A DNA stretch of 53,966 nt from Phycisphaerae bacterium (GTDB taxonomy: Bacteria; Planctomycetota; Phycisphaerae; WQYP01), in NCBI GenBank assembly GCA_037139555.1, contig JBAXGE010000001.1, positions 1 to 53,966 of the forward strand, given 5' to 3'. Shown here one piece after another: positions 1,339 to 45,406 of the stretch. The position numbers and the translations under genes were made by a program. Below the pieces are notes generated by a model. It had not been told where the DNA came from. It made no database searches and worked only from the letters and a program-made list of their open reading frames with translations. Position 1 is the first letter of the stretch. Each line of letters opens with the position of its first letter.

Positions 1339-2865
1339 TTAGGTTGGATTGGTCGGAGCCTGACCGGGTGGTATCGAAACCGTTTCCGGGGCTGGGACGG
1401 GTGTGGGGATATTGTCAGGACTCGGGGTTACGCCTACGGTTCCCAAGGCAATACGACCGGGGTCCTGCTTGCTTAACTCATCAATCTTCGGCAACAATTT
1501 TGACAATTCCGCAGCGGTCGTACTGGTGGGGAATTTATTGATAACCCGATGGGCCACGCCCAATGCTTCGTCATAGCGTTTGGATCGGACCATTTCTTTG
1601 AAGAGTTCCTCCTCTTCCCGTCGTTCCTGCGCCTCGGCATTCTGCCGGAGGGTGCTTAACTGCTCATTACGCAACTGCTCCACCCGCGGTTCGCTGGTGT
1701 AACGCTGACAGATTTCTTCGCCGATTTGCAGTGCCCGCCGCCAGTCGCGACGTTCGGAGCATTCTTTCATATCGGTGAACATACGGCTCATAATATCATG
1801 TTCAAACCGCGTGCGTTCCCGCCGAACTTCTTCGGCCATTGCCTTGATATTGGGATCATCGGGATAACGATTGAGCAAGCCGATCATGATTTCTTCCGCC
1901 TGAGGCCAGGCGTTGGCGGCAAGGAGTTGGCGTAATTGGATTTTGGCCGATTCGGCATCCTGACGGGCCCGTTGGGCGCGAACCATACCGACACGTCCGG
2001 TCAAATCAGTGACCATTGTGTCGTGGGCACCAAACTCGATTCGCAGTTTTTCTAGAATCGCCTCGACCGCCTGCCAGTCATTGACTTCGATGAGATGACC
2101 GATCTGGTGCTTCAGATCGTGACGTTTCTTCTCGGCCATGCGGGCCAGCAAATCATGTTTCTGGCTATCGGTCATAAGCAAGGCTTCGTGCAGTTGCTTC
2201 AAGGCGGTCAGTACGGCGGTGTTGTCTGCTTCTTCGTGTTTATGCTGACGCGAGTGAACTTGAACCGGTTCCCGTAGCGCTGGCGGTGGTTGATGTGCGG
2301 GCGTTTTGGTGTGCTTCAGAGTATCGGACAAGTTGTGGATCGTTTCGTTGAGGGCCTCAATCTTGCTGCTTAACAATTCAGACTGATGAATCCGAAACCC
2401 TTGTGAGTTAAGGATTTTAGCCAATGCCAACAATATAAACCCGACCGCCGCGCAGAGCACGAGTATCAGCCCGGCCTGCCATAGATTGGGGCTGGCAAAG
2501 GTCGCCTCAACCACCTCGCCGGGCTTGGCAAACTGTCCCAGCAGGAAAGGCAACGGCATGATGGCCAAAGGTGGCAAACCGGGCCGGACCGGACGCGTGG
2601 CTGGGGTGGGGATTACTTTAACTGGGGTCGAACCAGTACTCACGGTGGGCGTGGTGTTACCCGGAACAACTTTAATCACGGTAGCATTGGACGTTTCGGA
2701 TGGGTTGGTCGCGGTTTCATCTGGCTCCATGTGTTTCGCCGGATGGGTGGCAGAATAGACACTGAAAAAGTAACCAGCCCCCACAATAATAGTGGCCACA
2801 GCGGAGCCAAAAAGGCCCACTCGAATCATGTCGTTGGTTATCCCATTCCAGCGGCGCTGCGACAT
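1339..2865 (-). CDS. Hypothetical membrane protein: two TM segments, a Pro/Thr-rich spacer, and four C-terminal TPR-like helical half-repeats
   Basis: 508 aa, ATG start. TM segments are VGLFGSAVATIIVGAGYFF and LILVLCAAVGFILLALA. The C-terminal repeats have the form (D/A)W-x2-A-x9-11-(Y/F)P: NDWQAVEAILEKL, NAWPQAEEIMIGLLNRYPDDP, RDWRRALQIGEEICQRYTSEP, KRYDEALGVAHRVINKFP. The same module recurs in the 38279-39307 ORF. Confidence 0.6.
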   Translation of the reverse strand: MSQRRWNGITNDMIRVGLFGSAVATIIVGAGYFFSVYSATHPAKHMEPDETATNPSETSNATVIKVVPGNTTPTVSTGSTPVKVIPTPATRPVRPGLPPLAIMPLPFLLGQFAKPGEVVEATFASPNLWQAGLILVLCAAVGFILLALAKILNSQGFRIHQSELLSSKIEALNETIHNLSDTLKHTKTPAHQPPPALREPVQVHSRQHKHEEADNTAVLTALKQLHEALLMTDSQKHDLLARMAEKKRHDLKHQIGHLIEVNDWQAVEAILEKLRIEFGAHDTMVTDLTGRVGMVRAQRARQDAESAKIQLRQLLAANAWPQAEEIMIGLLNRYPDDPNIKAMAEEVRRERTRFEHDIMSRMFTDMKECSERRDWRRALQIGEEICQRYTSEPRVEQLRNEQLSTLRQNAEAQERREEEELFKEMVRSKRYDEALGVAHRVINKFPTSTTAAELSKLLPKIDELSKQDPGRIALGTVGVTPSPDNIPTPVPAPETVSIPPGQAPTNPT

Positions 2866-2910: not shown

Positions 2911-2938
2911 AATATAGCAAGCTATCGAATCATGGCAA
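2911..2938 (-). promoter_or_regulatory. Putative sigma70-type promoter for the 1339-2865 gene
   Basis: Minus strand reads TTGCCA (2938-2933), a 16-nt spacer, then TATATT (2916-2911), about 45 nt upstream of the ATG at 2865. Confidence 0.3.
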
Positions 2939-2986: not shown

Positions 2987-4147
2987 TCAGTTATGCAACT
3001 CCTGCAGGGCACGGATCAGGGCATCCAGATGGACCGCAGTATTAAAGGCTCCAGGGCTGATACGAATGGCTCCATCCGGGAAGGTCCCCAAGGTTTTATG
3101 GGCATAAGGGGCACAATGCAGTCCGGGACGGACTGCAATGGTAAAGTTCTCATCCAGAATACTGCCCACTTCATGGGGTGTGTAGCCGGCGAGATTGAAG
3201 CAAAGCGTACCCACCCGCTGCCGCGCACTGGGGGGACCGTATAGCGTGCAATTGGCCAGCGTGCCCAATACCTCAATAATTTTTTGCACCTGAGCCTGTT
3301 CATGCGCCAATACGGCACCGGCCGGTTGGGACGTTACATAATCCAGCGCCGCCCCCAGACCTGCAATCCCTACCGTATTGGGCGTGCCACCTTCGAGGAA
3401 ATATGGGAACTGCCGGGGCATGGTGGGGCTGGAGGAATCGCCGCCGGTACCACCCTCACGGAACGGTTTTAAGGCTTCAAGTGGAACCGTGGTATTCACA
3501 TACAGCCCACCGGTGCCAGTGGGCCCCAGCAGACTCTTGTGGCCGGGGAAAGCCAGGAAATCAATGTAACTATCCGCCACAGAAATGGGCACTGCACCAA
3601 TGGTTTGTGCGGCATCCACCAGAAAGCGCACGGTATGCGCCCGGGCAATCGCACCGACGGCGGTAATGGGCTGGATCACGCCTACCACATTGCTGGCATG
3701 AGTCAGCGCAATCAAACGGGTCTGAGGGGTAATGGCCCGTTTAATATCATCGGGATCAATCACGCCGGTGGCGGGGGAAAAATCAATCCGGGTCAGGGTG
3801 ATAAAACCCGCATCGGCCAACGCCTGCAGGGGCCGGCTGACCGAGTTATGCTCCAATGTGCTGGTAATCACATGATCACCCGCCCGCAACAGCCCTTTGA
3901 AGGCGATGTTCAGGGCGTCAGTACCATTCAAACACAAGATCATCCGATGCAGGTCGGTACCACCGATAAATTGCGTAAATTTCTGCCGGACATTATCCAG
4001 CATCTTTTCCGCACCGATGGCCATGCGATGACCGGCCCGGCCGGGATTGGCGGCTTCATGGGCGAGAAACTCGGCCATACGCTGGGCCACGGCGGGAGGT
4101 TTGGGCCAACTGGTTGCGGCGTTATCGTAGTAGATGATCTCGTGCAC
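2987..4147 (-). CDS. Class-V aminotransferase / cysteine desulfurase-like protein (NifS/CsdA/SufS family)
   Basis: N-terminus IIYYDNAATSWPKP, PLP-lysine context FPGHKSLLGPTGTGGLYV, C-terminal RPGLHCAPYAH. The track start at 4192 is TTG and would overlap the DinB gene. GTG at 4147 is preceded by AAGGAA and lies 11 nt after the DinB stop, so I prefer it. Confidence 0.8.
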   Translation of the reverse strand: MHEIIYYDNAATSWPKPPAVAQRMAEFLAHEAANPGRAGHRMAIGAEKMLDNVRQKFTQFIGGTDLHRMILCLNGTDALNIAFKGLLRAGDHVITSTLEHNSVSRPLQALADAGFITLTRIDFSPATGVIDPDDIKRAITPQTRLIALTHASNVVGVIQPITAVGAIARAHTVRFLVDAAQTIGAVPISVADSYIDFLAFPGHKSLLGPTGTGGLYVNTTVPLEALKPFREGGTGGDSSSPTMPRQFPYFLEGGTPNTVGIAGLGAALDYVTSQPAGAVLAHEQAQVQKIIEVLGTLANCTLYGPPSARQRVGTLCFNLAGYTPHEVGSILDENFTIAVRPGLHCAPYAHKTLGTFPDGAIRISPGAFNTAVHLDALIRALQELHN

Positions 4148-4158
4148 AGGCGGATTCC

Positions 4159-4644
4159 TTATACCGGGGGTAGACCTTGGACCCGGCGCCAAGCCGAGAG
4201 CTGGCCTGCGTGATAGGCTTCGTGCCAGGTTCCATATAGCAGAATGGCATGCAACACCGTGGGGGTGCGCTGGCGCCGATTCGGATCGGGGTGCGGTGCG
4301 TTATATTGCTCGGGGGTAAGTGTCTTCAACCGGGCATAAATCTGCTGGCGAACCTCGTGCATCCGCTCCAGATACCACTGCTTGTTTTGATACAAGGCGG
4401 CATCCGCCAGCGGAGTCGAATTGCCCCCATACAGCTTCTTGAACTCGTCAGTTACGGCCGTCTCCGGGCCACCAATCAACTTCAAGAAGTTGTAATCCAC
4501 AAACAATTGATGACCCAATACCCATGCCGGGTGATTAGTCTTGGGCGCCGGCTGTAAAGTCAACTGGGCATCGCTTAAGTCCGCAACCAATTTCAGCAGC
4601 GACTGGCGGGTCAGTTCGATGGTGGCAATAATGGCATCCAACAT
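4159..4644 (-). CDS. DinB-fold (DinB_2/YfiT-like) putative metal-dependent protein
   Basis: 161 aa, ATG with AGGAG 8 nt upstream. It has the characteristic His triad context: NHPAWVLGHQL near the N-terminus and TWHEAYHAGQL near the C-terminus. Confidence 0.75.
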   Translation of the reverse strand: MLDAIIATIELTRQSLLKLVADLSDAQLTLQPAPKTNHPAWVLGHQLFVDYNFLKLIGGPETAVTDEFKKLYGGNSTPLADAALYQNKQWYLERMHEVRQQIYARLKTLTPEQYNAPHPDPNRRQRTPTVLHAILLYGTWHEAYHAGQLSAWRRVQGLPPV

Positions 4645-4668
4645 GCGTCTACTCCTACGTTAAAGGGA

Positions 4669-5763
4669 TCAAGCTCCAACATATTTGGCATACAACGAAC
4701 GGGCCACCGAGGTCTCATGCGTGCCTTTGATAATCGCACGGCCATCGGCAAAGAGCGTGAGTTCGTATTGTTTGGCTTGCGCCGCGGCGCCTTCGTTGAT
4801 GGTACACTTCAGCATGAACTTGTTATAGGTCGGCTGGCCGACGGCACGCAGACCATTTGCCACGTGTTCAAAATCCACCTTGAATCCCGCTGGCGGCGCC
4901 ACCTGAACGGCATTGCGACCACAAAGCGAGGTCGTGGACGAGGCGAACTGGCCGGAGAGAAATTCATAACGATGGTGTTTGCAACAAGGACAATCAGCGA
5001 TATCGCGGGCCTTGCTGACGTTGAGCTGCTGGAAACGGTTGTCCCAAAGATCAAACGAGAACAGCCGGGTACTGACTTCGGCCAGATTACCGGTCAGCAA
5101 TTTGATGGCCTCCATAGCCTGCCAACTGGCCACGATATTTACCGTGGGGCCCAACACGCCAGCGGTATCACAGGTCGGGTTCATGCCCGGCGGAGGCATG
5201 GTTTCAAAAATGCAGCGCAGGCAAGGCGTCTGGCCGGGACGGATCACCATCGCCAAGCCCATCGCGCTGATGCACGCGCCATAAACCCAGGGTATCCCCA
5301 GTTTGATGGAGACATCATTGATCAGAAACCGCGTCTCGAAATTGTCGGTGCCGTCCAGCAGCAGATCTTTGCCCGCCGCGAATTGCTCAATGTTGTGGTG
5401 GTTGATATCCGCCACGATGGCTTCGGTGCGAATCGCGGAATTAATCCGGGAGATTTTCTTATGCGCAGCCACCGACTTGGGATACCCTGCGGCGATGTCG
5501 TCTTCGTCAAACAGGACTTGGCGTTGCAGATTGTTGGTTTCGATGAAATCGCGGTCCACAATGGTGATATCGCCCACCCCGGCGCGGGCCAGCGTATTGG
5601 CCAACACGGTACCGAGTGCACCGCAACCAACCATAAGGACTTTGCTGGCCGCGAGTTTTTTCTGCCCTTCAATCCCGATGGGCGCCCACAACATTTGTCG
5701 GTTATACCGGGCCAAAGCGGGGTCGGCTTGTTCGAGTAATTGTGCCTGATCGGAAATTGCCAT
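4669..5763 (-). CDS. ThiF/MoeB/HesA-family E1-like adenylyltransferase, with no rhodanese domain
   Basis: 364 aa. Nucleotide-binding loop VLMVGCGALGTVLANTLARAGVG..IVDRDFIETNNLQRQVLF. Two CxxC pairs (CLRC, CPCC) typical of the ThiF/MoeB zinc site. The C-terminal tail reads ...LTLFADGRAIIKGT...ARSLYAKYVGA. Confidence 0.85.
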   Translation of the reverse strand: MAISDQAQLLEQADPALARYNRQMLWAPIGIEGQKKLAASKVLMVGCGALGTVLANTLARAGVGDITIVDRDFIETNNLQRQVLFDEDDIAAGYPKSVAAHKKISRINSAIRTEAIVADINHHNIEQFAAGKDLLLDGTDNFETRFLINDVSIKLGIPWVYGACISAMGLAMVIRPGQTPCLRCIFETMPPPGMNPTCDTAGVLGPTVNIVASWQAMEAIKLLTGNLAEVSTRLFSFDLWDNRFQQLNVSKARDIADCPCCKHHRYEFLSGQFASSTTSLCGRNAVQVAPPAGFKVDFEHVANGLRAVGQPTYNKFMLKCTINEGAAAQAKQYELTLFADGRAIIKGTHETSVARSLYAKYVGA

Positions 5764-5839
5764 ACTTGTTCCTAGTAATATGTATACGGGACGAACGTCT
5801 GCGCTTACATCCTTGGTTGGTCACTGACCCGACAGAAAA

Positions 5840-6094
5840 TCAGCCTTCGATGGCATTTTTCTCGATGGGTTCCACGGTCACACCACTGCGTGATAAAAAG
5901 GTCAAGGCCCCATCGATCTGGGCGGTTTCACCTTCAAAGAGTACGGCCATAATCCCAATTTCATTGGTCACACTGGCCTGCCGGATATCAAAACTGACAT
6001 CGGGAAATTCGCGGCTGGTGCGCCACAGGATGGGTGCCTCAACCAAGGTACTGGACCCGAAGGTCAACCAGACTCGTTTCTTCGCATGCGCCAT
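5840..6094 (-). CDS. Stand-alone NIL-domain protein
   Basis: 84 aa. The pattern RVWLTFGSSTLVEAPILWRTSREFPDVSFDIRQASV..EIGIMAVLFEGETAQIDGALTFLSRSGVTVEPIE matches the NIL domain known from the C-terminus of MetN and from NIL-ferredoxin proteins. The ATG lies 3 nt after the carrier-protein stop, and the AGGAGG Shine-Dalgarno sits inside the carrier's terminal Gly-Gly codons. Confidence 0.7.
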   Translation of the reverse strand: MAHAKKRVWLTFGSSTLVEAPILWRTSREFPDVSFDIRQASVTNEIGIMAVLFEGETAQIDGALTFLSRSGVTVEPIEKNAIEG

Positions 6095-6097
6095 GAC

Positions 6098-6373
6098 TCA
6101 ACCTCCTGCAATTGCGGGGACAATGCTGACTTCATCGCCATCTTTGACCGGGGTGGCGAGATTGTCGAGGAAGCGGATGTCCTCATCATTGACATAAATA
6201 TTTACAAAACGGTTCAACTCGCCGGGTTGCTTGAATAAACGCTTATCCAAGCCAGCAAACTTGGCCGTAATCTGAGCTAATACTTCGGCCACATTAGCAC
6301 CCGTGGTTTCCACCAGATCTACCCCCTCGGTAATATTCCGTAAGGGGGTGGGGATACGTACTTTAATCGCCAT
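6098..6373 (-). CDS. CysO/ThiS/MoaD-type sulfur-carrier protein (beta-grasp, C-terminal Gly-Gly)
   Basis: 91 aa from the ATG at 6373, which has GAAGGAG upstream. An alternative ATG at 6424 gives 108 aa. The sequence MAIKVRIPTPLR...LNRFVNIYVNDEDIRFLDNLATPVKDGDEVSIVPAIAGG closely follows the mycobacterial CysO pattern (...RFVNIYVNDEDVRF...ILPAVAGG). Confidence 0.85.
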   Translation of the reverse strand: MAIKVRIPTPLRNITEGVDLVETTGANVAEVLAQITAKFAGLDKRLFKQPGELNRFVNIYVNDEDIRFLDNLATPVKDGDEVSIVPAIAGG

Positions 6374-6427
6374 AAGAACTCCTTCGTTTTGGGCTATTGT
6401 AGCCAAAGACTGATTAAACTGCATGAC

Positions 6428-7684
6428 TTAAACAGGTGCCGCAACCGATGCGGCCGTCATATTTTGCATGACCTGATCAAAGGCCTCCAGACGCGGTTGA
6501 ATTACAGCCGGCGTTTCCAGATGATTCTGCACCACTTCAACCGTCTTAAGGCCATTACCCGTGATACATACGCAAATACTTTCGTCCCGGGGTATACGGC
6601 ACGATTCGATCAGTTTGATGGTGGCCGCCAGAGTGGTCCCCCCTGCCGGTTCCGTCCAAATACCCTCAGTTTTAGCCAACAGTTTAATGGCTTCCACAAT
6701 TTCGTCGTCGCTAACACTGGCCCCCCACCCACCGCATTGACGCAAGGTTTGAAGCACATAATAACCATCGGCGGGATTCCCGATGGCGATACTCTTGGCG
6801 ATAGTACGGGGTTTCTGGGGCCGGATCAGGTCACGACCGGCCTCCAGGGCTTCGATCACCGGATTGCACCCGGCAGCCTGCGCGGAATAAATCCTGGGTT
6901 GGTTATCGGCCACCAGACCCAGACCGATAAATTCCTGATATGCCTTGTAAATCTTGGGCAAAATCGTTCCTCCTGCCGTGGGGCATACCGTATGCTGCGG
7001 CAGACGCCAGCCCAACTGTTCGGCGATTTCAAAGCCGTAGGTTTTAGCACCTTCCGTGTAATAGGGCCGCAGGTTGACGTTGACAATCGCCCAACGGTAC
7101 TTGTCCGCAATTTCCGAACACAAACGATTGACATCATCGTAGTTACCGTTGATCCGCACCATCGTGGGATGGAAGATCAACGAGCCCAGAACCTTGCCCA
7201 GTTCCAGATCATGAGGGATCATGACAAACGCCTTCAGTCCCGCCACGGCAGCGTGGGCCGCCACGGAATTGGCCAAATTGCCAGTGCTGGCACACCCGAC
7301 GGTATCGTAGCCCAGTTCTATCGCCTTGGTAATCGCCACCGAAACGACACGTTCTTTGTAGCTCCAGGTGGGATAATTGGCAGAATCGTCCTTGATGTAG
7401 AGTTCTTTAACCCCAAGGACACGTTCCAAATTATGCGCCCGGCGCAACGGGGTCATACCCGAATTAAGCCCGGCCTTGGGTTCCCCATCACACGGCAGCA
7501 AATCACGATAACGCCAGAGACTGTGCGGGCCGGCCTGAATGGAGGCTTTGGTCACCTTCCCCTGCATGGCGGCATAGTCATATTCGACTTCGAGCGGGCC
7601 GAAGCATAATTCGCATACATGTACGCCGCGGTGGCTATATTTAGCCCCGCACTCTTTACACTTCAAACCGTTGACGTAGCTCAT
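6428..7684 (-). CDS. Threonine-synthase-like PLP enzyme with an N-terminal zinc ribbon (candidate MetM-like O-phosphohomoserine-dependent homocysteine synthase)
   Basis: 418 aa from the ATG at 7684, with GGAGG upstream. The track ORF extends to 7792 but would run through the riboswitch terminator. It has an N-terminal CKECGAKY...CELCFGPLEV zinc ribbon and a fold-type II PLP core (WSYKERVVSVAITKA..., GNLANSVAAHAA, ...TAGGTILPKIY). Confidence 0.85.
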   Translation of the reverse strand: MSYVNGLKCKECGAKYSHRGVHVCELCFGPLEVEYDYAAMQGKVTKASIQAGPHSLWRYRDLLPCDGEPKAGLNSGMTPLRRAHNLERVLGVKELYIKDDSANYPTWSYKERVVSVAITKAIELGYDTVGCASTGNLANSVAAHAAVAGLKAFVMIPHDLELGKVLGSLIFHPTMVRINGNYDDVNRLCSEIADKYRWAIVNVNLRPYYTEGAKTYGFEIAEQLGWRLPQHTVCPTAGGTILPKIYKAYQEFIGLGLVADNQPRIYSAQAAGCNPVIEALEAGRDLIRPQKPRTIAKSIAIGNPADGYYVLQTLRQCGGWGASVSDDEIVEAIKLLAKTEGIWTEPAGGTTLAATIKLIESCRIPRDESICVCITGNGLKTVEVVQNHLETPAVIQPRLEAFDQVMQNMTAASVAAPV

Positions 7685-7697
7685 CGTGGCCTCCGGC

Positions 7698-7748
7698 AAA
7701 AACAAAAAAAGCCGCCTATCGGGTTCTTTCCAGAACGATAAGAGGCTG
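7698..7748 (-). terminator. Intrinsic terminator (expression platform) of the SAM-I riboswitch
   Basis: Minus strand reads GCCTCTTATCGTTC-TGGAAA-GAACCCGATAGGCGGC followed by TTTTTTTGTTTTT. The 5' arm contains CTTATC, identical to the 5' strand of aptamer helix P1. The P1 3' strand GATAAG can therefore pair with either, which is classic antiterminator/terminator competition. Confidence 0.75.
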
Positions 7749-7788
7749 CCGCCAAGGCTACGTTTACCCTGTATACGAGGGCAAAATA

Positions 7789-7920
7789 CCACTTATCTTT
7801 CCCCAGGCTTCCACGCAAAAGGCGGAGTCGGGTGGGAGAATTAGCACCGAACGCTGGCTGATACCAACTAGGTTGCTGTGTCGTCAACGGGCCCGTCCCT
7901 CGGACACTCTGGATAAGGAA
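7789..7920 (-). promoter_or_regulatory. SAM-I (S-box) riboswitch aptamer
   Basis: Minus strand reads TTCCTTATCCAGAGTGTCCGAGGGACGGGCCCGTTGACGACACAGCAACC...GGTGCTAATTCTCCCACCCG...CCTGGGGAAAGATAAGTGG. All hallmark elements are present: P1 CTTATC/GATAAG, CAGAG, P2 GTGTC/GACAC with GAGGGA and GGCCC, GCAACC, GGTGCTAAxTC, and a P4 hairpin CCCA.../...TGGGG. Confidence 0.9.
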
Positions 7921-7940
7921 CTCTTCACTTGTATGTGGAT

Positions 7941-7968
7941 AGTATAGTACATTGGTAGGGATTGTCAA
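7941..7968 (-). promoter_or_regulatory. Putative sigma70-type promoter driving the riboswitch operon
   Basis: Minus strand reads TTGACA (7968-7963), a 16-nt spacer, then TATACT (7946-7941), about 20 nt upstream of the first aptamer nucleotide. Confidence 0.5.
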
Positions 7969-8012: not shown

Positions 8013-10709
8013 TTACTCCTTGCGCGGCCAACGATTGGAATCGCCCGGGTGGCGCAGAATCCACAATTCCGGGTCGAGTTCCACACGCTCGGGTTGGAAC
8101 GGCAGTTCAAAGGTAATCACCTGCTCGGACTTATCCAACCGCTGTTTGGCAATTGTAAGCACTTTGCCAGCCGACCCATAGCAGCGAATATCCACGGGCA
8201 TGGGGTAGATTTCGTCGGGCTGGGTGATATTCAAGGTAACCGATTGTTTGCCATCGGGGAGTGATTTAACGATCATTTTTTCGATCCGGTAGTGGGCGAA
8301 GCCGGACGAATTCAACCACAGGGCAAAGAAGCTGCGTAAATCCTCGCCCGCAACGTCCGTAGCCACGCGTTTGAAATCTTCGACGTTGGCCGGGGTATGG
8401 CGATAGGTTTCTGCCCAGCGGCGCAATAGTTTGAAGAACTTCTCATCGCCCATCACATAACGCAACGAATGCAGAACATAGGCCCCCTTCTCGTAGACCA
8501 CCGGGCGGTATAGTGGCGAATCCGGCAGACAGTTCATCACGGTTTCTTTAGCCCGGGGGAAACGCAGGGTGAAATCCAGGAACAACTGGGCGTAGCGCAA
8601 CATGTGTACACGCAGCGCATTGGCACCTTCGCTTTTCTCGGTATACAACGCATCCAGGTAGGTGGCGAAGCCTTCGGACAACCATTGGCTGTAGTCGCTG
8701 TCCATCAGATTGATCGGGATGAGATTGCCGAACCATTGATGGGCCAATTCATGGGCCAGCAGCGTAGTGGGCACTTCTTTACGATTGACCATTTCGGATT
8801 GCAGCCACATCATCGAGGCCGGGCCAACGCCCCCGAGGAAGGGCGGTAAGGGGACTTCGACAATGGCCATTTTTTCATACGGGTACGACACCACGCATTG
8901 GGAGTAAAAATTCAAAATATCGTGGGCTGCGGTCACATAGGCATCATGTTTTTTGGCGTTGGTCGGACGCAAATAGGTGTAATAATGGATAGCGCCGCGA
9001 GTTTCGTCTTGCAGTTCATATGGACCATAGGCGAAATAGAGTCCAAAGACCAGCTCATCGGTGCTGAACTTGAACTCACCGGGCTTGGTCGCGGTGCCCG
9101 GTTTGCGCTCTACCAGACGACCGTTTTGGACCGCTTCGCCGGGAGCGTGCAGACGGATTTTGACATCAGCTTTGAACAGGTCGCCAATGATGGTGGTGGG
9201 ATACCACAGCCCGGAGGACAAACCGTAGCCAAACTCACCCACCGTCAAATGCGGTGTCACCAGCGGTTCGTCTTCGGCACGCGGGACATGCACCAGCACC
9301 GGCCGGGTGGTCGGTTCCAGCGTACCGGGGGCCGGACGGGTGGCAGGCCTCGTGGCGGGTCGGGACGTGGTGGTGGACTGGGGCCGAATTTGTTGGGCTT
9401 CGGGCCCCGCATAAATACCGGTATATGAGAAATCCAGCTTAATTTGCTCATCTTTACGGAAAATACTGGGTAGTTTCCAACGCCAAGTGTCTCCGTTTAG
9501 CTGCGGTACCAGTCGTACCCCGTTCACCGCCGCAGAATTGACTTTCATGTGGTTGGCCAGCATGAGCAGAATTTCGCGTTTGTCATCACCCCGGTTAATC
9601 AGCGTGAGTGAACCGGCAACCGTGATCCGGTGCTGGTCGGGCTGAATATCCACAGTCAGGGTATAGGTCTGCGCATCCAGCTTCTGCTGCGCAAACATTT
9701 TGAGTTGTTCGGCCGGGGGAATAGCCTTGTCACCCAAAGTATCATACGGGATGGTACCGCCGTAACGGCCCTTCCCATAGCTTTCACCGGCTTGCTGGGC
9801 TTCCCGCTGCCGGGCACTGCGGCTGCGACTGCGGGCTTCGGGAACATTGGGGCTGTCGGGAAAATCTTTGGTCATTTTTTCATAGGCTTCCGCCGCTTCT
9901 TTCTGGCGGTGCAACTTGTCACTGAGCAAACGGCCTTTTTCCATCAAGGCCCGTTCGGTCCATGGTACTGATTTGGGATATTTCTCCGTCATATCCGTAA
10001 GCATGCGCAGGGCCGTTTCAGGCTCGTTGGCAAAATCATAAAGTTTGGCCAGGCGGTACATCGCTTCGGGCACATCATCCCCCTGAGGGTAGTCGGTCAG
10101 GTACTTCTTAAACAACTCCAGAGCATTGATCGGTGGCTCTACCAAACCTTCGTGCCAGATCCGTCCCATTTCCATCAGTGCCATGGCTGCGCCCGGACCG
10201 GCGGGAAAAGTAGTGCGATACTGTTCATATTTTCCCAACGCACGTTTATACTTTGGATCCGCCTCCGGCAACGTGCGGGACTTCAAGTCATCCGCCTGCC
10301 GATGTAATATCTTCCCTTGTTCCAAAAGCGCCTGACCGCCGTTTTTTTCCTGTGCGGGATAGTTTTTAACAAGATATTCCCAGTAGTCGAGCGCTTTTTC
10401 CTCATTTTTCTTGACTTCATAGATCAGTATGGCCACGCGCCGCCAAGCCTCGGCCGCATCGTCGGATTTTCCGAACCGGGTTTCGAGCGTCTCGTAAAGT
10501 TGGATGGTTTCGCCGAGTAATTGTTGGTATTGCTCGGGGGTAAGGGTATCTTTTTCAGCGCGGACACGGGCTTCGTATTTGCCTGCCATTTCCAACTGCG
10601 CGATGGCGGACTGGGGGGTGCTGAAGTACCAATAGGCATAGCCCACCCCAAAGATCCCCGCGACCAGCAAGACCGTAAGCACAAAAAACAGGATCGTCCG
10701 TCTTTCCAT
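8013..10709 (-). CDS. Membrane-anchored TPR-repeat protein fused to an M1-family (aminopeptidase N-like) zinc metallopeptidase domain
   Basis: 898 aa. N-terminal TM ILFFVLTVLLVAGIFGVGYAYW, then TPR-like helical repeats and a Pro/Thr linker (TSRPATRPATRPAPG). The C-terminal domain carries the gluzincin signature HELAHQWFGN plus WLSEGFATY. Confidence 0.85.
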   Translation of the reverse strand: MERRTILFFVLTVLLVAGIFGVGYAYWYFSTPQSAIAQLEMAGKYEARVRAEKDTLTPEQYQQLLGETIQLYETLETRFGKSDDAAEAWRRVAILIYEVKKNEEKALDYWEYLVKNYPAQEKNGGQALLEQGKILHRQADDLKSRTLPEADPKYKRALGKYEQYRTTFPAGPGAAMALMEMGRIWHEGLVEPPINALELFKKYLTDYPQGDDVPEAMYRLAKLYDFANEPETALRMLTDMTEKYPKSVPWTERALMEKGRLLSDKLHRQKEAAEAYEKMTKDFPDSPNVPEARSRSRSARQREAQQAGESYGKGRYGGTIPYDTLGDKAIPPAEQLKMFAQQKLDAQTYTLTVDIQPDQHRITVAGSLTLINRGDDKREILLMLANHMKVNSAAVNGVRLVPQLNGDTWRWKLPSIFRKDEQIKLDFSYTGIYAGPEAQQIRPQSTTTSRPATRPATRPAPGTLEPTTRPVLVHVPRAEDEPLVTPHLTVGEFGYGLSSGLWYPTTIIGDLFKADVKIRLHAPGEAVQNGRLVERKPGTATKPGEFKFSTDELVFGLYFAYGPYELQDETRGAIHYYTYLRPTNAKKHDAYVTAAHDILNFYSQCVVSYPYEKMAIVEVPLPPFLGGVGPASMMWLQSEMVNRKEVPTTLLAHELAHQWFGNLIPINLMDSDYSQWLSEGFATYLDALYTEKSEGANALRVHMLRYAQLFLDFTLRFPRAKETVMNCLPDSPLYRPVVYEKGAYVLHSLRYVMGDEKFFKLLRRWAETYRHTPANVEDFKRVATDVAGEDLRSFFALWLNSSGFAHYRIEKMIVKSLPDGKQSVTLNITQPDEIYPMPVDIRCYGSAGKVLTIAKQRLDKSEQVITFELPFQPERVELDPELWILRHPGDSNRWPRKE

Positions 10710-10767: not shown

Positions 10768-12054
10768 ATGTTACCTCGGAAAAGAGATGTTTTTATGTCC
10801 CGACCCATTGGTCCAGTATATCAGCCTGACGATGCCGGATTAAATGTGGCATCCTTGGTCCAATTGGCTGAGGACCAATATCTACCCCTGCGACAATCAG
10901 CCCGCCAAGTGGCGGAGCATCTGGGGGGCATTCAGGCCAAAGATATTGCCCAACTGCGCAAGCATTGGCCCGCTGCTCTGGTCCGGACGGCACTGGTAAT
11001 CGCGGGGACTCAGGCCAAAGCTCTGGGGCCGAAGGGTAAATTTCAATCCCTCGGACTCGATTGGTTCTGGTCCACGCCCGAGGCTTTGGAACAAGCGAGC
11101 AGTTTTCGGGTGGCCCTGCATAAGACCCGGCAGATGGCGGGCTTGGGCCTGCACCAAGTCTGGGACTTATGTGCCGGTATCGGCGGTGATGCCCTGGCTT
11201 GGAGTGCCCAGCAACCTACTAGGTTGGTCGAACTCAGTCCGGTGCGGGCGTGGATGGCAGAAGCCAATTTACGCGCCTGCAAACGTAACACCGAGGTGTG
11301 GTGCCGGGATATCGCCACGATCCGGGCCGATATTAAACACCAAGATTTCATTCTTATTGACCCTGCCCGGCGGTCGCGGGGAATTCGGGCGGTCGGCTGG
11401 CAAGAGCTTTACCCCTCGCCTGCGGTATTTATGCCTTTGCTGGACCAAGCGCGGGCCGCGTGCATCAAATTATCCTCGGCCATGGAGTACAGCGAACTCC
11501 CCGGCGGACACTTGGAATTGATTAGTGACCATGGCAGCGTGGTCCAAGCGGTATTATGGCTGGGCGAAGCCGCGCAATTATTGGGCTCCCATCCGCGCCG
11601 GGCATCCATTGTTACAGATGACGCCACATGGAGTGTGACGGGCATACCACATCCCCCCTTTGCGTTGGCAGAACCGGATGCATATATCGGCGAAATTGAT
11701 GGTGCCGTCACCCGGGCGGGTTTAAGCACCGAAGTACTCGGACCCCTCCAGGCACAGGCCTTAACTGTTGATGGTGGTTATTGCACCGCCCCCACCCCGA
11801 TCCCGCACCCGGCGGTGACCTGGTATGCCACCCGGATGCACGGCGGGGCAGATCTGAAAAAGATTCCGGGCTGGATCGCTGATCAGAGACTCAAGGGGTG
11901 CATCGAAGTGAAAACCCGCGGGGCTCCCGACATCAATACCGACACACTGCAAAATCTGTGGTCACAAGGCCCCCACTATGTGGCGACAGTCATGATCTAT
12001 CGGCGGGACAAACAACTGCGGGCAGTGTTGGCCCAGCGCCTGTCCAAATCATAA
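10768..12054 (+). CDS. Class I SAM-dependent methyltransferase-like protein
   Basis: 428 aa; start is ATG 10768 or 10795. SAM-binding motif I context VWDLCAGIGGDALAW, followed by ILIDPARR (motif II/post-I-like). The substrate is unknown. Confidence 0.55.
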   Translation: MLPRKRDVFMSRPIGPVYQPDDAGLNVASLVQLAEDQYLPLRQSARQVAEHLGGIQAKDIAQLRKHWPAALVRTALVIAGTQAKALGPKGKFQSLGLDWFWSTPEALEQASSFRVALHKTRQMAGLGLHQVWDLCAGIGGDALAWSAQQPTRLVELSPVRAWMAEANLRACKRNTEVWCRDIATIRADIKHQDFILIDPARRSRGIRAVGWQELYPSPAVFMPLLDQARAACIKLSSAMEYSELPGGHLELISDHGSVVQAVLWLGEAAQLLGSHPRRASIVTDDATWSVTGIPHPPFALAEPDAYIGEIDGAVTRAGLSTEVLGPLQAQALTVDGGYCTAPTPIPHPAVTWYATRMHGGADLKKIPGWIADQRLKGCIEVKTRGAPDINTDTLQNLWSQGPHYVATVMIYRRDKQLRAVLAQRLSKS

Positions 12055-17241: not shown

Positions 17242-19476
17242 CTACGGTTGTGTATTGGCAACCGGCTGGGTGGCTGGTTGAGTGGCGGCTGTGGCTTTGG
17301 CCTCGCTATCCTTTAACCATGCCGATTTTGGGAAGGTCATGGGTACGATACGCTCAATCCAGCCGTAATTCCATGCCGCCCAGCCCAAACCAACAAGGAC
17401 CAACACGCCCAGGATTTTCCAACGCAGGGTCTTCTTCTCGGCAAAGGGATCAAACAAATCACGCTGCGCGCCGGGGGGTAACTTGGCCACTGCGGTCAGC
17501 GAGGTTCCAAAAGGAATATTGATGCGGGCGCGGGCGTTGATTGCCCAGCCATTGGCGTCGAGGATCGGTCCCAGATTGCGCTGACGCAGTTTCAACCACG
17601 CAATCAGCATGGACGGGCCAGAGATAAGCAGGAGCAAGGTCACCAAGCCCACAGGCATCCATACGCCCAGACTGAAAAAGGCCTGCATGATGACCCCGAA
17701 AGCCGCAGTAAGTCCCCCCACCGCCACACCCAAAGCCGCCACGACGCCAATATCAATCTTGGGCTTCTGGGCCGGGGCTTGGCCGGTCTTGGCGGCCTGC
17801 TCGGTGGCCAAAGCAGCTCCGGTGAGTTTATCCGTCGAAGCCGCGTCCGCGGCGGCCGCGCGCTTGGCAATCTGATCCTGAATCCAGCGGATCAGTTTTT
17901 TATAAGGCGACCAGAAGGCCTGACGGATGCTAATCGGGGCCTCCACCAGTTTGGTGACGGTTGCATCCCAATCATGGCCTTTGCGGTCATAAAAAATCCC
18001 ATTACGCCCGACCATCAAATTATCGCTGTCGCCGGCGGTCATACCGGCAGCGATGGTCATTTTCTCATTGGTCGCCTTGCGGACCAGATCGCAATACACC
18101 AGATAGGTGTTACTCAAATGCGCCATAGTGCCATGTTTGGTGGCGTCCTCAACGCGAATACACAAGTCGCTGCTGCGTTGATCCAGATACAAGCGTCCCG
18201 CCTGAAATACCGCGCGTTCCTTGCGGGCATAGAAGAAGCGGAAATTGACATAATTGTTGAGCAACGGGTACAGATCGCGATGCAAACGCACCAGTTTATC
18301 CACCTTGGCGATGGTGCTGGCTTCGGGTTCCAAAGCCTGATCCTGCGCAATTAAAGCTTTAATCTGCGTGTGAATGGATTCATCCAGCAATTCCGCCACG
18401 CGTGGAGCGCCCAATTTTTCGACCGTCAGATTGGGCCGACGACTCTGCCAGGCCGCATACGGGGTGAAGGCTGCGGATACTTGTTGCCACTGGGGTAAGG
18501 TTAGCTGGGTGATTTTGCCCAACAGGGGCTCGAGGACCTGCTGTTGGAGTTGCCCCAACACAACAGCCCAAGCGGGATTGAGCCCGGCATCCAAAGGTAA
18601 AACCAGGTCTGTGCCAATCTTGGCTAAGGGAAATTCAGCGACTTCCTGCATTCCCTGAGTCAAGACTTTTGCGGAAATGGCGGCAAATTCCCCTTCACTG
18701 CGATTCAAGGAGGCTAGTGACCGTGAATCGAAGGCGGCCAATCTGACCCGGGCAAAATAGTCATCCACCTTGGCGCGTACCTGGTTGAATACTTGATAGG
18801 CAGATTCGGTCTGGGCGGCCAAGGGAAGGATTTGGGCCGGCTGGGACTGGGCCTCAGAACTCCACGCCAACCATAGGGTGGCATCCGCTAGAAATTGTTC
18901 CAGCAAGGCCTGATTCAACCCGGGCTTGCCACTGCGATCCAGCTGGGAACCAACGCAATTTATAACGTCAAGCATGGCGGCTTGGAGGATCGGATCATCG
19001 GTACTTTCCGGAGGCACAATGCCATCGCCGTTGAAGCGGGTCTGGGCAAAGATTTTGACCGTGTCGGCGGTATCTTCACAGGAGATTACCGTTTCGGTCT
19101 TGCCCAAATTAGCGAGGATTTGCCGGGCAGAGGCGGCGATTTGCTGCCCCTCGGGCGTGCTGTCGTTAATATTATCCAGGGGCAGGTGGGATTCGGCTTT
19201 GAGTAACGCGTCGGCATCGCGTAAAAGGCTGGTCACCCAAGTAGCCGCCGCAATGATTTCCGGAGCGCGAATTCGGCCATCATTATCCGAATCAATCAGC
19301 TTGAGCGTGGTGGTATCGAATTCCAACCCATGGACCGGACAACTCAGAGCCACCCAGAGTTTGGGATCGAGTTCGCCCAAATGGGCAATATCCTGACCCG
19401 ATTGGAGCAGAACCTGGTCAAAACCACCGGCCCGGAAGAACTTCCATGGATATTTTTTTTTAGTTTGGGCGGTCAT
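17242..19476 (-). CDS. Large hypothetical protein with a canonical EF-hand Ca2+-binding loop near the N-terminus and three C-terminal TM helices
   Basis: 744 aa from ATG 19476, with AAGGAG 6 nt upstream that overlaps the TAA of the preceding gene. The track start at 19509 is GTG. EF-hand loop DSDNDGRIRAPE (DxDxDGxIxxxE). C-terminal TMs are IGVVAALGVAVGGLTAAFGVI, VWMPVGLVTLLLLISGPSMLIAWL and WKILGVLVLVGLGWAAW. Confidence 0.7.
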   Translation of the reverse strand: MTAQTKKKYPWKFFRAGGFDQVLLQSGQDIAHLGELDPKLWVALSCPVHGLEFDTTTLKLIDSDNDGRIRAPEIIAAATWVTSLLRDADALLKAESHLPLDNINDSTPEGQQIAASARQILANLGKTETVISCEDTADTVKIFAQTRFNGDGIVPPESTDDPILQAAMLDVINCVGSQLDRSGKPGLNQALLEQFLADATLWLAWSSEAQSQPAQILPLAAQTESAYQVFNQVRAKVDDYFARVRLAAFDSRSLASLNRSEGEFAAISAKVLTQGMQEVAEFPLAKIGTDLVLPLDAGLNPAWAVVLGQLQQQVLEPLLGKITQLTLPQWQQVSAAFTPYAAWQSRRPNLTVEKLGAPRVAELLDESIHTQIKALIAQDQALEPEASTIAKVDKLVRLHRDLYPLLNNYVNFRFFYARKERAVFQAGRLYLDQRSSDLCIRVEDATKHGTMAHLSNTYLVYCDLVRKATNEKMTIAAGMTAGDSDNLMVGRNGIFYDRKGHDWDATVTKLVEAPISIRQAFWSPYKKLIRWIQDQIAKRAAAADAASTDKLTGAALATEQAAKTGQAPAQKPKIDIGVVAALGVAVGGLTAAFGVIMQAFFSLGVWMPVGLVTLLLLISGPSMLIAWLKLRQRNLGPILDANGWAINARARINIPFGTSLTAVAKLPPGAQRDLFDPFAEKKTLRWKILGVLVLVGLGWAAWNYGWIERIVPMTFPKSAWLKDSEAKATAATQPATQPVANTQP

Positions 19477-19486
19477 TGGTGTCTCC

Positions 19487-20365
19487 TTAGACTGATTTAT
19501 TCGGGGCACGCAGAATTATACCCACTTTGTTCAAGGCGGTAATAATCCCCTCCTGATGGGGATGTAAAGCCAGTGAATTCAGGTAGGCCGCACGGGCCTG
19601 CAGCCAATCGTGCTGACCCACATAGCAGTTGCCCATGGTACCCCAGGCACCAAAATGGTCCGGCAACAAGGCCAACGCGGCCCGACAATCGGCCAGCGCC
19701 GGGGAGTAATCATCCAGCAGATATTTCGCCATGGCCCGTTGGTGGTAGGCTTCAATAAAATTGGGGTCATCCTGGAGGGCGGCATCAAAGCACTGGATGG
19801 CTTGGGCCAAGTCTCCCTGTTCCAGTAAATCCACGCCTTTAAGTACCTGACTGGGGGCGGTGCCCTGGCCCAAGCTGAATAGCAAGGTCCACCATGCGTG
19901 TTCGGCCATTTGCACAACCACAGGGTCCGCGTCCCGGAGACCTTGGGCCAGGCCGGGCAAGGCCCGTAGGTCCTGCATGTGCCCCAAAATCAGCAGCACC
20001 ACCTTACGAACGTCCACCGTCTCATGCTGGAGCAGAGGCAGTATTTCATCCAGCGTCCAAAGCTTACGGGCTTGGTCCAAAGCCTGCCCCAAACGTCCTT
20101 CCGCCAAAGCGGGACACATTACGCTGAGCACTTCAGAAGCCGAGACTACGAGCGGCTTTTGATCCATATAGAGGTGGTCTACCATGCAATTTGTTGATAC
20201 GATTAGGGCCAATGAAAGAACCAGTAAGGTGACTCGACGCCACGTTTCTTTGTGGCAATAGTAGGCCGTCACAGTTGCGAGGGCAAAAAACCTCACCAAG
20301 CGGCCCCGTTTCGTTATAATAGCCCGCCAAAGGAGCCCATGAATGATGTCGGCACGCAAAATCAC
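19487..20365 (-). CDS. HEAT-repeat plus TPR-repeat protein (start uncertain)
   Basis: HEAT-like VRKVVLLILGHMQDLRALPGLAQGLRDADPVVV. TPRs are DLAQAIQCFDAALQDDPNFIEAYHQRA..., YSPALADCRAALALLPDHFGAW..., and WLQARAAYLNSLALHP. The track start (GTG 20365) would overlap the divergent lipoprotein gene. Alternatives are GTG 20296 or ATG 20185/20167. Confidence 0.6.
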   Translation of the reverse strand: MILRADIIHGLLWRAIITKRGRLVRFFALATVTAYYCHKETWRRVTLLVLSLALIVSTNCMVDHLYMDQKPLVVSASEVLSVMCPALAEGRLGQALDQARKLWTLDEILPLLQHETVDVRKVVLLILGHMQDLRALPGLAQGLRDADPVVVQMAEHAWWTLLFSLGQGTAPSQVLKGVDLLEQGDLAQAIQCFDAALQDDPNFIEAYHQRAMAKYLLDDYSPALADCRAALALLPDHFGAWGTMGNCYVGQHDWLQARAAYLNSLALHPHQEGIITALNKVGIILRAPNKSV

Positions 20366-45379: not shown

Positions 45380-45406
45380 TGCATGTCTCCAGAAAACAGG
45401 CCCCAA

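Follow-up and report, generated by a model that had tools for sequence, protein, structure and literature searches.

Which product is made by a threonine-synthase-like enzyme whose gene stands behind a riboswitch for S-adenosylmethionine (SAM) and ahead of genes for a ubiquitin-like carrier, a carrier-activating enzyme and a cysteine desulfurase? The question is raised by a six-gene operon on the minus strand of contig JBAXGE010000001.1 (assembly GCA_037139555.1) from a Phycisphaerae bacterium (Planctomycetota, WQYP01), of which positions 1-53,966, the window, were analysed. The answer that we consider highly probable, judged from the sequences of this and related loci, is homocysteine, formed by the MetM/MetO protein-thiocarboxylate route from an operon that SAM turns off.

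The leader of the operon was examined by pattern scanning, Rfam search and RNA folding. A sigma-70-type promoter-like site (TTGACA-16 nt-TATACT, 7941-7968, minus strand), which agrees with the consensus in 11 of 12 positions and was identified by this match alone, lies about 22 nt upstream of a SAM-I (S-box) aptamer (7790-7919, minus strand). The aptamer matches the full Rfam model RF00162 (1-108; 63.2 bits vs a gathering threshold of 44.4, E 2e-12) and is the single Rfam match across the 54-kb window. The expression platform (7698-7746, minus strand), recognized from the sequence and from RNA folds, contains a terminator and an overlapping antiterminator. The terminator is an interrupted hairpin of 36 nt (7746-7711) followed by a T7-G-T5 tract (7710-7698); the ribosome binding site GGAGG (7694-7690) and the ATG at 7684 come next. 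It was overlooked by the pattern scan because its stem is interrupted, and was revealed by folding. The full leader folded into the aptamer helices and the terminator hairpin. When the T tail was omitted, the 3' strand of helix P1 (GATAAG in the DNA, 7797-7792) paired as GAUAAG with CUUAUC in the 5' arm of the terminator (7742-7737). This strand therefore has two possible partners, the CTTATC of the 5' strand of P1 (7917-7912) and the CUUAUC of the terminator arm. When SAM is scarce, pairing of the P1 3' strand with the terminator arm would let RNA polymerase read through; with SAM bound, P1 and the terminator would form and transcription would end ahead of the first gene. By its sequence the leader is of the classical S-box terminator/antiterminator design, with termination predicted. 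Sequence and folds show the attenuator design; the regulation by SAM itself we infer. A hairpin and a T run were also found 3' of the aptamer in 17 of 24 SAM-I-positive related loci, mostly with a CUUCUUAUC-type 5' arm.

Six genes follow the leader on the minus strand. The first encodes a ThrC-like pyridoxal phosphate (PLP) enzyme of 418 amino acids (aa) with an N-terminal four-cysteine ribbon (6428-7684; Pfam PALP, 6e-64). Then come the genes of a 91-aa carrier of the ThiS/MoaD fold whose C-terminus reads AIAGG-stop (6098-6373; Pfam ThiS, 1e-17), a standalone NIL protein of 84 aa (5840-6094; Pfam PF09383, 4e-10), a ThiF/MoeB-type E1 adenylyltransferase of 364 aa (4669-5763; Pfam ThiF, 3e-74), a DinB/YfiT-fold protein of 161 aa (4159-4644; Pfam DinB_2, 2.5e-19, and MST, 6e-9) and a type II (SufS/CsdB-like) class-V cysteine desulfurase of 386 aa (2987-4147; Aminotran_5, 2e-85; TIGR01977). 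From the ThrC-like gene to the desulfurase gene the intergenic gaps are 54, 3, 76, 24 and 11 nt. The pattern scan found no promoter-like sites between the genes; its sole minus-strand terminator-like match was inside the ThrC-like coding sequence, and with 4 terminator-like matches in total it stayed under the 6.3 that chance would give. The same six genes, called independently and with equal product lengths, occur in a relative with 98% identity (L001 in our numbering of related loci), and the six-gene operon is kept in L001, L006, L007 and L083. An initial annotation of this DNA had described a promoter, a riboswitch and six minus-strand genes with gaps of 3-76 nt; all of these elements were found at the coordinates given there, each of the six domains predicted was matched by Pfam or NCBIfam, and the classical S-box attenuator claimed agrees with the Rfam match and the leader folds.

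The identity of the first enzyme is central to the pathway. A tblastn search of PLSDB led, at 51.5%, to a record of the actinomycete Nonomuraea gerenzanensis (NZ_LT559118, L082), in which a SAM-I element (68.7 bits) is followed by a ThrC-like gene and by a gene for a 91-aa ThiS protein ending in AVAGG. The window has these three elements in equal order, and it is the order reported for metM and metO of Streptomyces. The window enzyme is 51% identical to the Nonomuraea ThrC-like protein over 402 residues and the two carriers are 44% identical, whereas a canonical threonine synthase (ThrC) from Nitrospirota, encoded three genes after a MetM-like gene, has 34% identity to the window enzyme. In a rough neighbour-joining distance tree with midpoint rooting, the ThrC of Thermus and five second copies encoded within the related loci formed one clade, and the window protein was placed outside it, in a clade of carrier-linked proteins. 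Because of these identities and this placement the locus is assigned to the MetM/MetO type, as had been proposed initially. MetM-like and canonical ThrC genes occur together within single loci (L018, L019, L024, L034 and L039). On the sequence comparisons the ThrC-like enzyme is thus supported as a lineage apart from canonical threonine synthases. In the aligned carrier-linked proteins C9, C12, C24 and C27 as well as the PLP lysine K110 are invariant. Solved ThrC structures matched at 168-191 bits (Thermus 1uim, Aquifex 2zsj and Mycobacterium tuberculosis 2d1f); 1uim aligned with residues 53-402, the coverage of 1uim and 2zsj was limited to 53-405, and the zinc-ribbon extension has no counterpart in these two structures. 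A HMMER search of the whole library found full-length representatives at 35-55% identity, one of them (48%) from Micromonosporaceae. The best named protein matches (74-98% identity) were from Phycisphaerae or Tepidisphaeraceae metagenome-assembled genomes (MAGs). As to the Nonomuraea record, NZ_LT559118.1 is labeled 'plasmid I', has 11.85 Mb and 10 annotated features, and is evidently a chromosome filed as a plasmid; its SAM-I/metM-like/metO-like locus is unannotated.

To place the operon among its relatives, 80 loci with at least 51% identity were collected in a scan of one genome per species, covering about 15 phylum-level groups; with L001 the set comprised 81 loci. Their open reading frames (ORFs) were screened with the six window proteins and the remaining ORFs were clustered. 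In 69 of the 81 loci the ThrC-like gene has a carrier gene next to it; a NIL gene was found nearby in 28, an E1 gene in 15, a JAMM protease gene in 6 and a DinB gene in 3, and a SAM-I element lies upstream in 24. SAM-I elements were called with Rfam on a subset and, on all loci, with an nhmmer profile of the conserved 5' two-thirds of the aptamer, which recovered all Rfam matches; a covariance model of our own was dropped on account of the poor MAFFT alignment of the variable P4/3' end. They were found in Planctomycetota, Verrucomicrobiota, Kiritimatiellae, Acidobacteriota, Chloroflexota, Binataceae and one Deltaproteobacteria MAG; upstream of the cyanobacterial and Nitrospirota loci neither search detected any. 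On these comparisons the core of the operon, consisting of the SAM-I element, the MetM-like enzyme and the MetO-like carrier, is a member of the MetM/MetO system, which extends far beyond Streptomyces.

The neighbors of the related genes point to the same pathway. The Nitrospirota operons (e.g. L018, 166-5723; also L019 and L024) encode, in this order, the MetM-like enzyme, the carrier, NIL, a canonical ThrC (366 aa), a phosphoglycerate-mutase-family protein (PF10143 and PF01676), which is a candidate homoserine phosphotransferase (HomK), and aspartate kinase; in acidobacterial loci there are genes for homoserine dehydrogenase, aspartate kinase or sulfite reductase as well. HomK-like, aspartate kinase and homoserine dehydrogenase genes beside the relatives point to O-phosphohomoserine as the substrate, and the Nitrospirota and acidobacterial neighbors support the view that this substrate is shared by two ThrC paralogues with different jobs. 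The 24 loci of several phyla with SAM-I upstream, together with these neighbors, uphold the earlier argument that SAM-I ties the locus to methionine. In Thermodesulfobacteriota-type loci the MetM-like gene is accompanied by one or two CysK/M-like PALP genes, JAMM, a short E1 and, in some cases, TusA and DsrE/F-like genes, and these loci look like combined cysteine and homocysteine thiocarboxylate clusters. Clustered with them are DsrE/F-like pairs, TusA-like and radical-SAM genes (L041, 4651-5321 and 5569-6684; L014, 15042-16271; L063, 2766-3020), which suggests other routes of sulfur delivery to the carrier. In four acidobacterial loci (L046, L048, L050 and L079) the MetM-like gene has no adjacent carrier gene; SAM-I is upstream in all but L046, in L048 about 1.1 kb upstream and ahead of another gene, and the neighbors are sulfite reductase, homoserine dehydrogenase or aspartate kinase genes. 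The enzymes of these loci may draw on another sulfur donor, or on a carrier whose gene lies elsewhere.

Within Phycisphaerae the six-gene form marks one subclade and not the whole class, because other relatives keep fewer genes: L075 (Gemmataceae) has the long E1 and the desulfurase without DinB, Tepidisphaeraceae retain the enzyme, the carrier and NIL alone, and in two further Phycisphaerae, L084 and L085, most operon genes are missing and even fewer parts are left than in Tepidisphaeraceae. Several insertions were observed in these operons: a HicB-like antitoxin gene between the MetM-like gene and the carrier gene in L083 (9461-9670), several small ORFs of mobile type between E1 and desulfurase in L075 (14479-15703), and an ORF between NIL and E1 in L006, a Phycisphaeraceae MAG, which, by the look of its sequence alone, resembles GNAT-type acetyltransferases (2381-2809). 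In L083 the E1 and desulfurase genes are fragmented, probably by assembly frameshifts.

The remaining genes can be fitted to a sulfur relay. The carrier, which scored 58 bits with the NCBIfam model SAMP1 and 51 bits with moaD_arch, is encoded 54 nt downstream of the ThrC-like gene with an already free Gly-Gly end. By analogy with the published Streptomyces system and by family membership, we infer the steps of E1, desulfurase and synthase as follows. The E1 would adenylate the C-terminal Gly-Gly of the carrier, and the SufS-type desulfurase would draw sulfur from cysteine as a persulfide. The sulfur would reach the carrier adenylate, perhaps through an invariant cysteine in the E1 tail, to give the carrier thiocarboxylate (carrier-COSH). 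From this and O-phospho-L-homoserine the ThrC-like PLP enzyme would form homocysteine and regenerate the carrier. The net effect would be the transfer of sulfur from cysteine to homocysteine without cystathionine.

The catalytic part of the E1 has the motifs GCGALG, PCLRC and CPCC; the match to E. coli ThiF and MoeB is limited to residues 16-262. For the C-terminal residues 260-364 neither a Pfam family nor, by sequence search, a solved relative was found; this tail aligns with the last third of the NCBIfam model PRK12475 (full-length match, 358 bits vs a cut-off of 510). It contains the motifs TTSLCGRNAVQ, with the invariant cysteine, and DGRAIIKGT...YAKYVG, both kept in the long E1s of Planctomycetota (L001, L006, L007, L054 and L075); the E1s of other lineages are short, rhodanese-bearing (L036) or fused to the carrier (L074). 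The carrier fusion, from an Actinomycetota MAG (L074, 11235-12302), is a ThiS-ThiF protein (Pfam ThiS 4-90, ThiF 100-335) with an internal AIAGG, and its gene adjoins MetM-like, JAMM, PALP and NIL genes. The desulfurase scored 394 bits with TIGR01977 (cut-off 377), matched the E. coli SufS/CsdB structures at 189 bits, and shows the motifs FPGHK for the PLP lysine and RPGLHCAP for the catalytic cysteine. Type II desulfurases need a dedicated persulfide acceptor, and the cysteine of the E1 tail is a candidate for this role. The relay had been called complete in the initial annotation. This overstates the case: a rhodanese domain is missing from the E1, the way in which sulfur passes between desulfurase and carrier is conjectural, and the window encodes no JAMM/Mec protein.

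Several findings weigh against homocysteine synthesis by the MetM/MetO route. The window enzyme passes the NCBIfam cut-off of TIGR00260 (thrC) with 264 bits vs 167, and by that threshold it therefore counts as a threonine synthase; it falls narrowly short of the full-length model PRK08197 (294 vs 303) and is far under the cut-offs of the remaining ThrC equivalogs. The relation to the S. albulus MetM/MetO proteins was judged through the Nonomuraea gerenzanensis locus as a proxy. No rhodanese domain was found in the E1, which reaches 180 bits with the MoeZ model (cut-off 647), and a homologue search of the window detected no JAMM/Mec hydrolase; MoeZ and Mec are, however, helper enzymes and do not define the family. 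For a cyanobacterial homologue, assays with sulfide in vitro gave no clear sign of homocysteine formation, and other activities were seen (PMC12172450).

Three other explanations of the operon were weighed. The first, that homocysteine is made directly from free sulfide or from the desulfurase persulfide and that carrier and E1 are dispensable or regulatory, would suit the four acidobacterial loci with sulfite reductase or homoserine dehydrogenase nearby and no adjacent carrier. It appears improbable in view of the 69 of 81 loci in which the carrier gene is a direct neighbor, of the conservation of a Gly-Gly end that is free or can be processed, and of the occurrence of carrier-E1 and carrier-NIL fusions. 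The Streptomyces system is, moreover, summarized in GapMind as dependent on the MetO thiocarboxylate. According to the second explanation, O-phosphoserine and the carrier thiocarboxylate are the substrates of the ThrC-like enzyme and its product is cysteine, cysteate or another C3 compound; the enzyme would then correspond in function to CysM/CysO, and SAM control would reflect the general status of sulfur amino acids. ThrC homologues have indeed evolved the use of O-phosphoserine, and S-box elements control some Firmicutes cysteine genes. The cysteate synthase model, however, matched only weakly (71 bits vs a cut-off of 325), making cysteine with sulfur that the desulfurase had taken from cysteine would be a futile cycle, and the HomK-like, aspartate kinase and homoserine dehydrogenase neighbors point to a C4 substrate. 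In L014, L036, L038, L041, L063 and L074, furthermore, a CysK/M-like PALP gene sits beside the ThrC-like gene, which argues for two different products from one carrier; a C3 product of the ThrC-like enzyme is accordingly very unlikely. That the first gene encodes an ordinary threonine synthase, with carrier, E1 and desulfurase serving molybdopterin, thiamin or tRNA thiolation, would agree with the TIGR00260 score and with the annotation of all source-named homologues as 'threonine synthase', but it can hardly be maintained given that the element ahead of the gene, here and in 24 related loci, is SAM-I and not one responsive to threonine, that the carrier adjacency extends over many phyla, that canonical ThrC coexists within single loci and the tree places the enzyme outside the canonical clade, that the window holds no gene such as moaE or thiG whose product would consume a carrier thiocarboxylate, and that frequent misannotation of MetM as threonine synthase is noted by the GapMind authors (GapMind 2026 preprint).

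With homocysteine synthesis by the MetM/MetO route as the preferred explanation, roles have to be sought for the two accessory proteins. The NIL gene starts 3 nt past the stop codon of the carrier gene. A sequence search with the NIL protein gave zero matches to PDB sequences, and its relatives emerged by fold search. The AlphaFold2 (AF2) model (predicted local distance difference test score, pLDDT, 88.9) had as top PDB match the C2 domain of E. coli MetN (3dhw), with a template modelling (TM) score of 0.78, a root-mean-square deviation of 1.4 A and 27-30% identity; TM scores to 3dhw and to the isolated C2 domain 3dhx were 0.70-0.78. The C2 domain of MetN mediates trans-inhibition of the importer by methionine. 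Aligned pairwise, D36-I37-R38 of the window NIL fall on the N-I-I of the MetN C-terminus that includes Asn295; at the position of D36 the NIL proteins have Asp in Phycisphaerae and Asn in other phyla. For the NIL domain in the ferredoxin subunit of the homocysteine enzyme of methanogens, methionine binding and a regulatory role are described (PMC12068725).

The association of NIL with the carrier is recurrent. NIL adjoins the carrier in 28 of the 81 loci, from at least 10 phylum-level groups, and the carrier-adjacent standalone NILs, about 80 aa long, belong in all these phyla to a single conserved family with the motif NIR(Q/R)A(S/D)V...G...VEP(I/V)E. In five loci the two are fused, with NIL directly after an internal AIAGG (L014, 11275-11790; L017, 6334-6906; L038, 11288-11803; L041, 3326-3856; L063, 3020-3535); in the L014 fusion Pfam placed ThiS at 5-91 and NIL at 98-163. 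The hosts are Deltaproteobacteria and Thermodesulfobacteriota-type MAGs and one Planctomycetia MAG. A JAMM protease is encoded in all of the fusion loci but L017 (L014, L038, L041 and L063), together with CysK/M-like genes and a short E1, which suggests that the fusion would be cut to free the Gly-Gly end. The reading that we favor, conceivable though somewhat doubtful, is that NIL is a methionine-binding ACT-like partner that acts in feedback at the protein level or as an escort of the carrier.

The DinB-fold protein is restricted to a narrower group. A word-indexed search returned 160 homologues, every named source being Phycisphaerae or Phycisphaerales, and at least 13 of them apparently share a contig with ThrC-like matches, to judge by equal lengths of the longest contig. 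The gene lies between E1 and desulfurase in L001, L006, L007 and L083, with two tandem copies in each of L006 (4163-5113) and L007 (13371-14387); in L075 no divergent DinB was found in this gap, which holds other small ORFs. The AF2 model (pLDDT 94.7) had TM scores of 0.75-0.79 to 3cex and mycothiol S-transferase and of 0.68 to the bacillithiol transferase BstA, and further fold neighbors were the N-terminal domains of EgtB, OvsA and SenA (TM up to 0.79 overall). In the family H38, H141, E142 and H145 are invariant, H45 nearly so, and a basic loop, PHPDPxRRxRxP, is conserved. From what is known of such proteins, H45, H141 and H145 are presumably metal ligands, and a histidine-based metal site is likely. 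Because the protein contains zero cysteines, it is unable to carry a persulfide. That it is a metal-dependent enzyme of thiol chemistry which helps to form or resolve an acyl-persulfide intermediate is an unlikely idea; that it would, with a thiol, resolve the acyl-persulfide of the carrier to the thiocarboxylate makes chemical sense but is speculation. The possibility that DinB stands in for JAMM/Mec was also considered and downgraded: JAMM follows cysteine synthesis and carrier processing, and not the MetM-like enzyme, since all six JAMM loci have a CysK/M-like gene, a C-terminally blocked (fused) carrier, or both. No literature linking NIL or DinB proteins to thiocarboxylate pathways was found in a search of incomplete coverage.

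These elements could be combined into one scheme, with NIL as a general third component of the system, dual feedback by SAM and methionine, and a sulfur route through DinB and the E1 tail; as a whole we regard it as tentative and rather unlikely. In this scheme NIL, in at least 10 phylum-level groups, would be a methionine-sensing inhibitor of the synthase or the E1, or a capper or escort of the Gly-Gly end, in the synthesis of homocysteine (and cysteine). The carrier-NIL fusions of some phyla would need to be cut by JAMM, and feedback would operate in two layers, SAM acting on RNA and methionine on protein. The DinB metalloprotein of the Phycisphaerae subclade and the cysteine of the E1 tail would carry SufS-type sulfur to the carrier adenylate and so replace rhodanese.

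The operon can be compared with several known systems. The MetM/MetO pathway of Streptomyces albulus was reportedly described by Hasebe et al. in 2024 (Appl Environ Microbiol 90:e01247-24). Like the window operon, the Streptomyces system has a ThrC-homologous PLP enzyme, a ThiS/MoaD-type carrier and an upstream SAM riboswitch, and O-phosphohomoserine and the carrier thiocarboxylate are the proposed substrates. As reported in PMC12172450, metM of S. albulus follows a SAM riboswitch and has homologues in cyanobacteria, and GapMind lists MetM, MetO, Mec and MoeZ for the homocysteine pathway (GapMind 2026 preprint). The E1 of Streptomyces is MoeZ with a rhodanese domain and the carrier is matured by the JAMM protein Mec; in the window the carrier already ends in Gly-Gly and no JAMM gene is nearby, the E1 is encoded within the operon and has a different C-terminal domain, and SufS-type desulfurase, NIL and DinB are co-encoded. 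Among the ORFs listed for the Nonomuraea locus, none in the vicinity of the pair was noted as an E1 or JAMM gene. The initial annotation had held the combination of genes to be uncharacterised. For the core this does not apply, as it was already known from Streptomyces; in the literature searched we did not find described a standalone NIL accompanying the pair, a cysteine-bearing E1 tail in place of rhodanese, or the combination of subclade DinB with a SufS-type desulfurase.

In the CysO/CysM/MoeZ/Mec system of M. tuberculosis, as would be the case here, a Gly-Gly carrier activated by an E1 is converted to a thiocarboxylate, which attacks a PLP-bound intermediate derived from an O-phospho-amino acid. 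CysM, however, is an O-phosphoserine sulfhydrylase of the CysK/M type, its product is cysteine, and Mec hydrolyses the carrier-cysteine adduct, whereas a homologue search found neither a CysK/M-type O-phosphoserine sulfhydrylase nor JAMM in the window. The Thermodesulfobacteriota loci and the Actinomycetota MAG combine both types of enzyme with one carrier. Homocysteine synthesis by HcyS/HcyF/HcyD/MetY in Wolinella succinogenes was reportedly described by Krishnamoorthy and Begley in 2011. This system likewise uses a ThiF-like E1 to make the carrier thiocarboxylate that supplies the sulfur of homocysteine, but its MetY is of fold type I and acts on O-acetylhomoserine, and the carrier extension is removed by the JAMM protein HcyD; MetY and JAMM are absent from the window. 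With the C2 domain of MetN and the methanogen MA1822 (L-aspartate-semialdehyde sulfurtransferase NIL-ferredoxin) the operon shares the NIL fold in a methionine or homocysteine context, but NIL is here a free protein of 84 aa (fused to the carrier in other phyla) and not part of a transporter or a ferredoxin. The E. coli CsdA-CsdE-CsdL(TcdA) system resembles the operon in that a SufS-type desulfurase is encoded with an E1 of the ThiF/MoeB family; it differs in that the window has no SufE/CsdE-like acceptor, DinB lies between E1 and desulfurase, and the E1 substrate is a ubiquitin-like carrier.

The surroundings of the operon are ordinary. The other 30 large ORFs of the window are chromosomal genes of common kinds (EPSP synthase, ArgJ, RuvC, IspF, Fmt, QueC, an Opp-type ABC transporter and a sigma-54 response regulator among them), and none is a gene of methionine, threonine or cysteine synthesis; elsewhere in the window there is no canonical thrC, thrB/homK or metA/X/Y/B/C/E/H. 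Searches of the window with JAMM, CysK/M-like, canonical ThrC, HomK-like and aspartate kinase queries taken from the related loci matched the ThrC-like gene alone, and queries for homoserine dehydrogenase, TusA, sulfite reductase, PAPS reductase and Sat found nothing beyond it. A 508-aa ORF (1339-2865, minus strand) begins 121 nt past the operon and has a promoter-like site of its own (2911-2938, minus strand; TTGCCA-16 nt-TATATT, with an upstream TG); no Pfam match is on record for its counterpart in L001. There is no clear terminator in between, and transcription may read through from the desulfurase gene into this ORF. Several large ORFs are poorly characterised: 8013-10709 (minus strand), whose counterpart in L001 has TPR repeats and Peptidase_M1, 10768-12054 (plus strand), 17242-19509 (minus strand) and 40911-45406 (minus strand). 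For window ORFs of 428, 755, 648 and 853 aa no Pfam family was found at E values up to 1e-5.

The MetM/MetO route was first described in 2024 and has been summarized for Streptomyces. Its core, often with a SAM-I attenuator, is present in Planctomycetota, Verrucomicrobiota, Acidobacteriota, Chloroflexota, Nitrospirota, Thermodesulfobacteriota, Cyanobacteria and others. The recurrent association and fusion of NIL with the carrier provides a testable handle on a domain that MetN shares with the methanogen homocysteine enzyme, for which a methionine-binding regulatory role has so far only been hypothesised. Because carrier, E1, sulfur donor and two accessory proteins sit behind one riboswitch, the operon offers a compact set for reconstitution in vitro. 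The label 'threonine synthase' is nearly universal for these enzymes, and metabolic reconstructions of the mostly uncultured groups would therefore mispredict methionine auxotrophy or duplicate threonine synthases.

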